Shown here: piece after piece, positions 35,354 to 37,151 of the stretch
Layout of the letters: every line of letters begins with the position of its first letter
How positions within the stretch are numbered: position 1 is the stretch's first letter
Origin: a phage
DNA length: 64,000 nucleotides
Sequence record: PZ452598.1
Reading direction: 5' to 3' (one strand)
Translations under genes and position numbers: made by a program
Notes under the pieces: model-generated
Seen by the model: the letters and a program-made list of their open reading frames with translations, nothing else
Database searches by the model: none
Told to the model about the DNA's origin: nothing

Positions 35354-35372
<19 letters not shown>

Positions 35373-35545
35373 TCAGTGATAAAGTTATTTAAATTTTGAG
35401 CATATTTCTTTTCATCAAAAATCTTTTGCTGTCTGCGTAACCGCCATGGCATTTCAATGAACATACGCCATATTCCTGATAATACTGCTGCTGTAAAAAT
35501 ATTAACAAGTATAGTTAAAAGAATCCAATCGCCTATTCTGTCCAT
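35354..35545 (-). CDS. small membrane protein, tandem family member
   Basis: 63 aa with N-terminal TM helix. C-terminus [10 protein letters not shown] is encoded by the junction cassette tgcaggaaa. Confidence 0.55.
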
Positions 35546-35841
35546 TGGATTTTTATAAAAAAGTAAAATACGAATGATGATATAGGAAGACTAATGATAT
35601 ACCACAGAAGAACCTTCTTATCTGTGAACCAATCAGCATTCGTTAACTTAGCGCGACCATTTTGAATACACACGAATTTATCATCTGTTACAGTAAATGG
35701 CTTAGCTGCTTGATATCCCATTCTAAACTCCCTAATTAATCGTTTCTTTGTATCTTCGGAACAACCATTCCAATCAACTCTATCAACTGGAATGCCATCA
35801 TCCCCATCATCTAAATCATACCAGCGAGTTTTTAAAATCAT
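35533..35841 (-). CDS. small protein with C-terminal TM helix
   Basis: 102-aa ORF. ATGA overlap with the upstream gene. Confidence 0.55.
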   Translation of the reverse strand: MILKTRWYDLDDGDDGIPVDRVDWNGCSEDTKKRLIREFRMGYQAAKPFTVTDDKFVCIQNGRAKLTNADWFTDKKVLLWYIISLPISSFVFYFFIKIQWTE

Positions 35842-36200
35842 TTAATTTTCCTGCAATCAATCACAAACTCTTTCATTGATTCATTTTCAATATAAGACAT
35901 GTAGCTATTATATTCTTTTAATTGTATTTTGTAATCCTTTTTTCTTTGCCAATTTATTTTAAAATTATCATAATGAAAATATAAAATGATACCAAAGAAT
36001 GAAAACAATGAAATAATTTTAGTATAACAAAGCTCGCTCCAAACTTCTATTATATCTACTGTACCACTGATTTTTAAAATAAAACAGTCAATTAATAGTC
36101 CAATAAGACTACCTGTAAGAGCTGCAGCCAACGCCACAGCAAAAATTAAAAATGACTCAGAAAACGAATATTTGACTTTATTTAGCTTTGGCTTTTGCAT
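35838..36200 (-). CDS. two-TM membrane protein, tandem family member
   Basis: 120 aa, starts MQKPKL. C-terminus EFVIDCRKIK. Confidence 0.6.
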   Translation of the reverse strand: MQKPKLNKVKYSFSESFLIFAVALAAALTGSLIGLLIDCFILKISGTVDIIEVWSELCYTKIISLFSFFGIILYFHYDNFKINWQRKKDYKIQLKEYNSYMSYIENESMKEFVIDCRKIK

Positions 36201-36574
36201 CGTGATTCCTTAACAAATTTCATAATTTCATTAAATTCATACTCAGCAAGTTTAAGCTGGTGTTCCTTTTTAATCTTTTTGCACTGGGCTTTCCAATCAC
36301 GTACGCGTTTACGATAATGTCTTCCTTGATACCAGTATCCTATCCAATTTACGGGTACTAATAAAAATGGAACTACCAATGGAAGAGTTAGCATTAACAT
36401 AATTATTACGCCAGAATCAATATCAGTCATAACATCTAAAACACCTCCAATAATCAATAGAATTACAAATGATATAGCTATCACAGGACCTATTAATACA
36501 TCAGTAGAAATTATCTGGCGCTTTAATTCATACTTCAAAGGTTTACTTGGAAGGTATAGTGATGGCTTTGACAT
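36182..36574 (-). CDS. two-TM membrane protein, tandem family member; start trimmed
   Basis: Track ORF starts at TTG. ATG at MSKPSLYL has SD AAGGAA. C-terminus MKFVKESRCKS. Confidence 0.6.
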   Translation of the reverse strand: MSKPSLYLPSKPLKYELKRQIISTDVLIGPVIAISFVILLIIGGVLDVMTDIDSGVIIMLMLTLPLVVPFLLVPVNWIGYWYQGRHYRKRVRDWKAQCKKIKKEHQLKLAEYEFNEIMKFVKESRCKSQS

Positions 36575-37151
36575 ATTCTCTACATTCCTTAACAAATTTT
36601 TCTAGTAATAAATCACTTTCAAAATTAGGATTTTCCACTAATTTATCAAAAAGATCATCAACAATATTCAAGATATTTCTTTTACTAAGAATACGTTTAT
36701 TTTCATGCTTCGTTTCAGAATCAACTATAAGAGTAAAGAAATATTTCTTTCCCTGAAATTTTACCGTAGTATCAATATAAAATAAATTTGACTTTTGTAA
36801 ATTACGTTTAAACCATGCGTCACTTAAACTATAAACACCGAGATAATCAAAATCGTCGTTTAAATAACAAACTGACCATTCAGGAGAAATGAAATCAGTA
36901 AATTCAACATCAAAATCACATGTCAATGAATGAATTGATTCAATACTGTTAATAAGTATTCCAGGACGTATTAAAGACTTTTTACCTCTGGAAAATCTTC
37001 CAGAAAGACTTTCATCAGTTTCATATGAAGAACCCCAATAATAATTACGTCCTTTTGCCATATGTTTAAGAGCATTTAGTAATTGGTCTGGAACATCAAC
37101 GTGTCTTTGGAACTCTTCAAACATTGAATTGAAATCACTTTGCATTTTCAT
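36543..37151 (-). CDS. hypothetical protein
   Basis: 202 aa. C-terminus EKFVKECREY is encoded by the same junction cassette as the membrane paralogs. Confidence 0.6.
   Translation of the reverse strand: MKMQSDFNSMFEEFQRHVDVPDQLLNALKHMAKGRNYYWGSSYETDESLSGRFSRGKKSLIRPGILINSIESIHSLTCDFDVEFTDFISPEWSVCYLNDDFDYLGVYSLSDAWFKRNLQKSNLFYIDTTVKFQGKKYFFTLIVDSETKHENKRILSKRNILNIVDDLFDKLVENPNFESDLLLEKFVKECREYVKAITIPSK

Follow-up and report, generated by a model that had tools for sequence, protein, structure and literature searches.

The genes e.5, e.4, e.3 and e.2 of bacteriophage T4 form a block of early genes that lies entirely on the minus strand and runs without a gap into nudE. They were analyzed in a window of 64,000 nucleotides (nt), the whole stretch of DNA under study (record PZ452598.1, whose numbering is used throughout), which is phage T4: positions 35200-37400 match OZ209023.1 at 100% identity and NC_000866.4 at 99.8%. 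The block is probably composed of two old paralogs, e.3 and e.4, most likely with e.2 as a third, and of an unrelated gene, e.5, all of which share a conserved tail peptide at the C-terminus and are linked by joints that combine the tail codons with the ribosome-binding site (RBS) of the next gene. An initial annotation had noticed related C-terminal peptides on four open reading frames (ORFs); the feature is real and statistically clean, and was in part mis-parsed at that first reading. The genes are already annotated but uncharacterised, and the block is most suitably classed as a tandem paralog array of old date, with a C-terminal motif in common and a copy number that changes by way of the junctions.

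A conserved peptide at the C-termini

The four related peptides are present as the initial annotation quoted them, on the minus strand, in e.5, e.4, e.3 and an ORF of 63 amino acids (aa) that is treated below as the end of e.2. They follow the motif Φ-x-x-F-[IV]-x-[ED]-[C/S/I/V]-[RK]. The strict form F[IV]x[ED]C[RK] has three matches in the six frames of the window, every one a C-terminus in the e.2-e.5 cluster, and the loose form, at most 25 aa from a stop codon, has five matches in the window, of which four fall in the cluster. Chance together with AT-rich codon bias could be proposed as the source of this likeness, since the motif is short and T4 codon bias favours identical codons. However, codon-shuffled windows are expected to hold 0.21 loose and 0.01 strict matches, as against the 4 and 3 observed in the four neighbouring genes; the motif has no match in the remaining 105 kilobases (kb) of the T4 genome (169 kb in total), and it is kept in orthologs of six genera. 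Shuffle statistics, absence from the rest of the genome and conservation across genera refute chance, whose probability is negligible.

The motif or close variants of it are kept in at least six genera of the Tevenvirinae, while the proteins otherwise drift to 20-53% identity. Compared with their Mosigvirus counterparts, T4 e.5, e.4 and e.3 are 47%, 53% and 35% identical, and compared with those of Gaprivervirus, 20%, 31% and 24%. Tails read QFIMECREY, EFVKEIRCK and NFIKECRK in Mosigvirus, RFIAECREY, EFIKEVR and TFIKECKS in Gaprivervirus, and SFIEECRK, RFIAECREY and IFIKECKS in Dhakavirus, with variant forms in Kanagawavirus (DFVEQCR, LFIRNVRRK) and Jiaodavirus (EFIKYCRE, EFIKEVRRK, TWIRSCRK, SWIKEMK). 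An alignment of 13 tails from four genera (that of T4, Mosigvirus, Gaprivervirus and Dhakavirus) has six constrained positions, namely a hydrophobic residue at -3, F at 0, I/V at +1, E/D at +3, C/S/I/V at +4 and R/K at +5; five of these hold in 13/13 tails, and +4 is hydrophobic in 12/13. The codons vary (TTT/TTC for F, ATC/ATT/GTT/GTG for I/V, TGC/TGT for C, AGG/AGA/CGA/CGT for R). Because the motif is kept across genera while its codons change, selection appears to act on the tail peptide rather than on a DNA cassette, and on these alignments the shared tail is conserved as a peptide.

Mosig-, Gapriver-, Dhaka- and Kanagawavirus (loci L007, 4287-5081; L017, 4191-4971; L023, 4519-5103; L022, 4716-5554) carry another set of small soluble tandem paralogs on the downstream side of e.3, comprising two or three genes of the RB69 ORF139c/137c/136c type. 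Nearly all of its members end in a C-terminal motif of their own, W-[VI]-[AS]-S-S-x-x-C.

Relationships and architecture of the proteins

Profile comparison shows e.3 and e.4 to be old full-length paralogs. In hhalign the two matched at 93.8% (E=1.8e-7) and, with enriched alignments, at 95.8% (E=6.8e-9) over 114 columns, which is their full length; their N-termini, MQKPKL and MSKPSL, match as well. Because they are 21% identical and both occur in at least three genera, the duplication that produced them is old, not recent. Membership in the family of e.3 and e.4, which are small two-pass inner-membrane proteins, is probable for e.2 and for an RB69-type ORF133c-like protein (101 aa, two-pass, tail NFIKECRGK). 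For the C-terminal half of e.2, the match to e.3 was 81.6% over 64 columns and that to e.4 1.5%; the ORF133c-like protein matched e.3 at 74.8% and the C-terminal half of e.2 at 71%. PHROG cross-matches (for e.2, E=7.5e-4 over 80 columns) agree with this, and a natural e.4::e.2 chimera joins its two genes at equivalent TM1 positions. No further paralog of the e.2/e.3/e.4 type was found elsewhere in T4. By comparison, e.5 is a soluble protein unrelated to the membrane paralogs, with only the tail in common: it aligned with the others over ~10-15 residues of tail (hhalign 1-36%), has no transmembrane (TM) segment and has a different fold. The proposal that a gene-plus-junction unit had been duplicated repeatedly is therefore upheld in part, for e.3 and e.4, likely for e.2, and by losses of whole units (described below); the duplication is old, and e.5 is no duplicate.

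Hydropathy analysis gave two TM segments each in e.3 and e.4, one in the 63-aa ORF, one in e.2 and none in e.5, and this, together with an AlphaFold model of e.4, agrees with the one or two segments first stated for the membrane ORFs. In the e.4 model (predicted local distance difference test score, pLDDT, 72), a TM1 helix at residues 24-49 and a four-residue loop are followed by an unbroken helix at 54-129; the model shows TM2 continuing into a predicted cytoplasmic helix of ~55 residues, the tip of which is the tail. The positive-inside rule and the distribution of charge place both termini of the membrane paralogs in the cytoplasm (N-in/C-in) as a predicted topology. In the e.5 model (pLDDT 58.6), the tail lies inside a C-terminal helix at 181-196.

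Precomputed labels assign PF26873 to e.4 homologs and PF26876 to e.5 homologs, and PF26873 plus PF26896 to an e.4::e.2 chimera (see below). These are separate single-gene families in which, as far as seen, neither the shared tail nor the kinship of e.3, e.4 and e.2 is recorded. A HMMER search of 1.84 billion representatives with an e.4 profile gave 6 matches only, every one from this phage group, and a scan of IMG/VR gave 6 loci. Several e.3/e.4 homologs at NCBI are labelled 'sulfurtransferase'; no NCBIfam or Pfam model backs this label, which looks spurious.

Joints between the genes

From e.5 to nudE the successive genes overlap by 32, 19, 4, 13 and 4 nt, with no intergenic gap. Two junctions have ATGA overlaps, two others the overlaps of 19 and 32 nt, and a Shine-Dalgarno (SD) sequence stands 5 nt ahead of the ATG at three junctions. 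By its overlaps and SD placement, the string from e.5 to nudE would thus fit a translationally coupled arrangement. The SD of the next gene coincides with the K-E codons in the e.4 tail and with the R-K codons in the e.3 and e.2 tails. In e.5 of Gaprivervirus an SD follows the motif, and in e.5 of Mosigvirus the corresponding hexamer is ATGGAA. Because the AAGGAA in the T4 e.5 tail is 10 nt from the e.4 ATG and reads ATGGAA in Mosigvirus, it is a doubtful SD. The earlier statement that each ending supplies the SD and start of the next gene, often with an ATGA overlap, accordingly stands for the SD at three junctions and for ATGA at two.

A single nucleotide cassette had also been proposed to recur at every ending. 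Self-alignment did recover repeats: an exact 16-nt repeat, AAATTTGTTAAGGAAT, with two copies and no others in the 64 kb, and a 30-nt repeat with 80% identity (positions in Table 1). DNA likeness is nevertheless confined to 2/6 pairs of junctions, e.5>e.4 with e.4>e.3 and e.3>e.2 with e.2>nudE; the remaining pairs have no significant likeness, so that two similar pairs take the place of a four-way cassette. The exact 16-mer requires no recent copying, because the identity of the five codons for the shared KFVKE has P=0.06 given local codon usage.

In the second pair, DNA likeness (35805-35840 compared with 35320-35356) extends ~35 nt beyond the ATGA. This stretch (GCTGGTAT..ATGA) reaches the first codons of e.2 and nudE, which are in different frames, and may be a remnant of a duplication boundary, or chance.

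The likeness might instead reside in DNA or RNA, the peptide being the mere translation of a regulatory cassette (an RBS, a RegA operator or an RNA structure) copied to each junction. The tails do overlap the next SD and start at three junctions, the exact 16-mer is present, and two junctions match the RegA consensus aaAAUUGUUAUGUAA, obtained by systematic evolution of ligands by exponential enrichment (SELEX), at 12/15 positions (PMC3014915). On the other side stand the peptide's persistence through codon change, the restriction of DNA likeness to two pairs, and the position of the SD, which differs among motifs and lies outside the motif in e.5 of Gaprivervirus and Mosigvirus. RegA-like matches with at most three mismatches number 15 in the window versus 13.1 expected, a chance level at which such matches do not count as evidence for an operator. 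An RNA element at the junctions was discarded, as Rfam has no match there and the folding energy of the junctions does not exceed that of shuffled sequences (z 0.06-0.58). A nucleic acid cassette is, on balance, an improbable source of the likeness.

Probable loss of units by recombination

Comparison of copy number among T4-like phages, which the initial annotation had suggested, revealed that e.2 or e.4 has been lost from junction to junction. In phages SF7 and ZN18 the entire e.2 unit is absent, and the e.3 tail, EFV[SI]DCRK|LK, passes through an ATGA straight into nudE; the crossover lies inside 9 nt, TGCAGGAAA, common to both junctions, and leaves a hybrid e.3/e.2 tail. In IME08 the e.4 unit is absent. 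Read against the related phage UPEC01, the IME08 junction is a hybrid of the UPEC01-type e.5>e.4 and e.4>e.3 junctions, with the crossover in GGTTC..AATG, the stretch from SD to start. In UFV05 and UFV09 all that is left of the array is e.5 and one e.4::e.2 chimera, followed by nudE. The two parts of the chimera meet in frame at a TCCTGT that both genes have at corresponding positions of TM1. Records found by tblastn at 60% identity or more number 503 for e.5, 504 for e.4, 499 for e.3 and 448 for e.2, and ~11% of Tequatrovirus records are without e.2.

Several irregularities were seen in individual genomes. In phage JS09, e.4 is annotated as 59 aa and the full 131-aa ORF is present (locus L008, 3554-3949); in ZN18, e.5 is broken by a frameshift (L005, 2086-2975); and one Mosigvirus-like contig is without e.3 (L013, 3393-3492).

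The joints invite comparison with the promoter-early stem-loop (PeSL) cassettes of T4-type phages (Arbiol et al., 2010, PMC2839356; Comeau et al., 2014, PMC4122927), which are intergenic, ~100 base pairs long, and consist of a sigma-70-like promoter and a GGGG...CCCC stem-loop. Both are short conserved sequences bounding accessory genes in a hyperplastic region, and in both, recombination between neighbouring copies removes units (or, for PeSL, swaps them) and leaves a chimeric copy, as in SF7/ZN18 and IME08. The e.2-e.5 joints differ in being 9-30 nt of coding sequence, made up of the C-terminal peptide and the next RBS and conserved owing to the peptide. All four copies fall inside coding sequence, at genes that overlap by 4-32 nt, unlike the location of a PeSL, and they are without the PeSL promoter and stem-loop, the only hairpin of that type being the one at 37174-37187, upstream of e.5.

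Could recent duplication or gene conversion have spread a mobile, PeSL-like junction cassette? The exact 16-nt and 80% 30-nt repeats at unit boundaries would agree with this, as would the unit-sized deletions with breakpoints in the repeats, which resemble PeSL-mediated excision (PMC2839356). However, the repeats are coding and not intergenic, no sigma-70-like promoter was found at any junction on the minus strand nor a stem-loop at the repeats, the identity and distribution of e.3 and e.4 indicate an ancient duplication, and the codon identity is to be expected from the shared peptide alone. Recent spread of such a cassette is accordingly regarded as quite unlikely.

Tandem arrays of small ORFans in the hyperplastic regions of T4-like phages likewise consist of neighbouring, fast-evolving, dispensable early genes that have been duplicated and vary in copy number. 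The e.2-e.5 block differs from the usual array in that the unrelated soluble e.5 carries the C-terminal peptide of the membrane paralogs, and in that this peptide is the only strongly conserved part.

The split e.2 gene

The initial annotation took the 63-aa ORF for a separate small gene. It is unannotated in both T4 genome records and in the 1993 record L13089, and its relatives identify it as the C-terminal half of e.2, cut off by a frameshift, and no gene of its own. PHROG 2203, a membrane-protein family of 166 residues, aligns with annotated e.2 over its positions 1-103 and, over 106-166, with the 63-aa ORF; phage GiZh has one 162-aa gene in the place of e.2, as do nearly all sampled Tequatrovirus records. 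Loss of one A (A6→A5) stops T4 e.2 after TM1 and leaves TM2, the cytoplasmic helix and the tail as the 63-aa ORF, whose ATG is 10 nt upstream of the e.2 stop. The frameshift is limited to T4 strains. As first read, the four tailed ORFs were not adjacent, because the 102-aa e.2 ORF separates the 63-aa ORF from the 120-aa gene; they become so once e.2 is restored.

The break (35543-35562) lies within ATAAAAAT, beside a stretch of six T (T6). If tRNA-Lys slipped by -1 on the A5 run, the full-length frame (FFIKNPMDR) would be regained, and reinitiation at the ATG 10 nt before the e.2 stop could be an alternative to slippage.

At 35474-35486, NC_000866.4 has two substitutions and an additional base relative to the window, OZ209023 and L13089. 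These break the 63-aa reading frame in the reference and represent either an error in the reference or a difference between strains. A comparable case is alt.-1/alt.-2 of T4, where the reference strain has two neighbouring ORFs in place of one gene. There, according to the NC_000866 note, the first part of alt was duplicated long ago, and a stop codon and a new start entered the copy; in contrast, e.2 has suffered a single-base loss in a homopolymer run, found in T4 strains only, and its second half is unannotated.

Expression and function

Class II holins are small proteins that span the membrane twice, with both termini inside (N-in/C-in) and a charged C-terminus. The products of e.2-e.4 are of similar shape, and in this they resemble class II holins, pinholins and T4 Imm alike: small, two-pass, inner-membrane, with both ends cytoplasmic and a highly charged C-terminus. 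This shape, and the closeness of the endolysin gene e, which is one to four genes away, could be taken to favour a part in lysis timing or superinfection exclusion, as holin/antiholin-like or Imm/Sp-like factors, and the initial annotation had speculated along these lines from a position just downstream of lysozyme e and nudE. In the direction of transcription, the genes are in fact upstream of both. The e.2-e.5 RNAs are early, and all four annotated proteins have been detected, from early or middle times (PMC9697503 supplement), while knock-down of each gene by CRISPR interference (CRISPRi) left fitness in the laboratory unchanged (PMC11879866 supplement). Furthermore, t, rI, rIII, imm and sp are already present elsewhere in T4, and e.2 is absent from the fraction of Tequatrovirus records given above. 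Scans of all proteins with Pfam and NCBIfam gave nothing above noise and no holin or exclusion family, PHROG had no holin or exclusion family match for the e.2-e.5 proteins, and PADLOC defence models had no match at E up to 1; no function was assigned by any of these libraries. No sequence kinship of e.2-e.4 with class II holins or Imm was found, and the ~55-residue cytoplasmic helix is much longer than in class II holins, pinholins or T4 Imm. A role in lysis or exclusion is thus distinctly unlikely. The literature on msp1-msp8 and e.2-e.5 offered annotation tables, expression classes and knock-down scores only.

Gene layout and neighbourhood

In the 1993 record L13089, the genes of the e.2-e.5 region are called msp4-msp8. 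The positions of the genes, repeats and other features are collected in Table 1. The annotation of L13089 contains the hairpin GGGGCTTCGGCCCC as a putative stem_loop; it has a UUCG loop, is without a T tract, and belongs to the GGGG...CCCC class of hairpin reported from PeSL elements.

The start of nudE is ambiguous, as the ATG of the reference falls inside the e.2 tail codons and Pyrodigal prefers a second ATG, which has an AGGAAA SD at 5-nt spacing and overlaps the upstream stop as ATGA.

The gene e.6 is much better kept than its neighbours (88% identity to Mosigvirus, 75% to Gaprivervirus) and was found in 1100 phage records, Klebsiella and Aeromonas phages among them. Some pipelines call it a 'host specificity protein', and the matching PHROG family, 1203, is of unknown function. 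As a co-occurring partner of e.2-e.5 it is uninformative, being near-core.

Table 1. Features of the e.5-nudE region and its upstream edge (window coordinates)
Feature	Position	Strand	Description
e.6	37194..37787	-	reference nomenclature
Hairpin GGGGCTTCGGCCCC	37174..37187	-	between e.6 and e.5; no T tract; upstream edge of the gapless block
e.5	36543..37151	-	202 aa; soluble, no predicted TM; C-terminus ...LLLEKFVKECREYVKAITIPSK; named in NC_000866; PHROG 2607
16-nt repeat, copy 1	36584..36599	-	e.5 tail; AAATTTGTTAAGGAAT = K F V K E + T
e.5 tail motif codons	36579..36596	-	F V K E C R
e.4	36182..36574	-	130 aa; two-pass membrane protein; start within the e.5 end by 32 nt; C-terminus ...EIMKFVKESRCKSQS
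16-nt repeat, copy 2	36205..36220	-	e.4 tail; AAATTTGTTAAGGAAT
e.4 tail motif codons	36200..36217	-	F V K E S R; AAGGAA inside, 5 nt before the e.3 ATG
e.3	35838..36200	-	120 aa; two-pass membrane protein; start within the e.4 end by 19 nt; C-terminus ...SMKEFVIDCRKIK
30-nt repeat arm	35838..35867	-	e.3 tail, AGGAAA SD and the ATGA in which the e.3 stop overlaps the e.2 start
e.2 as annotated in T4	35533..35841	-	102 aa; N-terminal soluble domain and TM1 of an ancestral 162-aa protein, cut short by the frameshift
A5 run	35550..35554	-	one A missing in T4; intact alleles TTTTTTATAAAAAATCC (A6), encoding FFIKNPMDRIGDW in one frame
63-aa ORF	35354..35545	-	TM2, cytoplasmic helix and tail of e.2
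30-nt repeat arm	35354..35383	-	e.2 (63-aa ORF) tail, AGGAAA SD and ATGA overlap with the second nudE ATG; contains the crossover core TGCAGGAAA
nudE	34917..35372	-	gene entered by the coupled string; start 35372 (reference) or 35357 (Pyrodigal)

Interpretation and significance

The reading considered probable here, an array of old paralogs plus e.5 with a common tail and tail/RBS joints, suggests how the block may work and change. The stretch in which the tail and the next RBS coincide would be doubly constrained and would therefore be the best-kept DNA of each unit, and it could serve as the joint for the unequal recombination that removes units and that presumably once added them. The tail would form the tip of a cytoplasmic helix and make a contact common to all four, whether to a single partner or between the e.2-e.5 proteins themselves. 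The block would then be a co-translated accessory set of one soluble and several membrane proteins, with a common contact peptide on their helix tips, and might act as an accessory host-interaction module rather than as lysis machinery.

Several points weigh against this reading. Membership of e.2 in the family, at 81.6% over 64 columns, is short of proof, and with an hhalign match of about 33% over ~10-15 residues, descent of the e.5 tail cannot be told from convergence or module capture. A hydrophobic-moment test for an amphipathic tail helix was not significant, and the interaction role of the tail is something we infer. The single sequences from Kanagawavirus and Jiaodavirus are weak profile matches with tails that depart from the strict motif. 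Phage JS98 has e.2 with its tail but no e.3, e.4 or e.5 within a 7.5-kb stretch around e.2, a stretch that does not include the e.6 region; because it keeps the tail without e.3-e.5 nearby, the tail may be independent of the other three genes. Finally, phages without e.2 were counted as records and not as independent events, and may form one clade, and parsimony is the ground for preferring loss to gain of units.

A more specific version is tentative, and doubtful as it stands: the tail may be a portable nine-residue docking peptide on the tip of a cytoplasmic helix, by which e.5 and a variable set of membrane anchors (e.4, e.3, e.2 and the ORF133c type) are brought to one partner or bind one another. 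The block would then be one membrane-tethered complex with parts exchangeable at the tail/RBS joints. If so, parts could be added, lost and recombined while both the docking peptide and the translation of the following gene stay intact.

The findings open no new kind of biology and their interest is modest. They correct the T4 reference picture: T4 strains carry e.2 as a split gene whose second half has no annotation, and NC_000866 holds three further differences in that half. They also indicate that an overlapping tail/RBS stretch in coding DNA can act as a joint for gain and loss of whole genes, a coding counterpart to the intergenic PeSL cassettes. For T4 itself, four genes of unknown function gain a common and testable handle in the form of a short peptide, which suggests that they act jointly.

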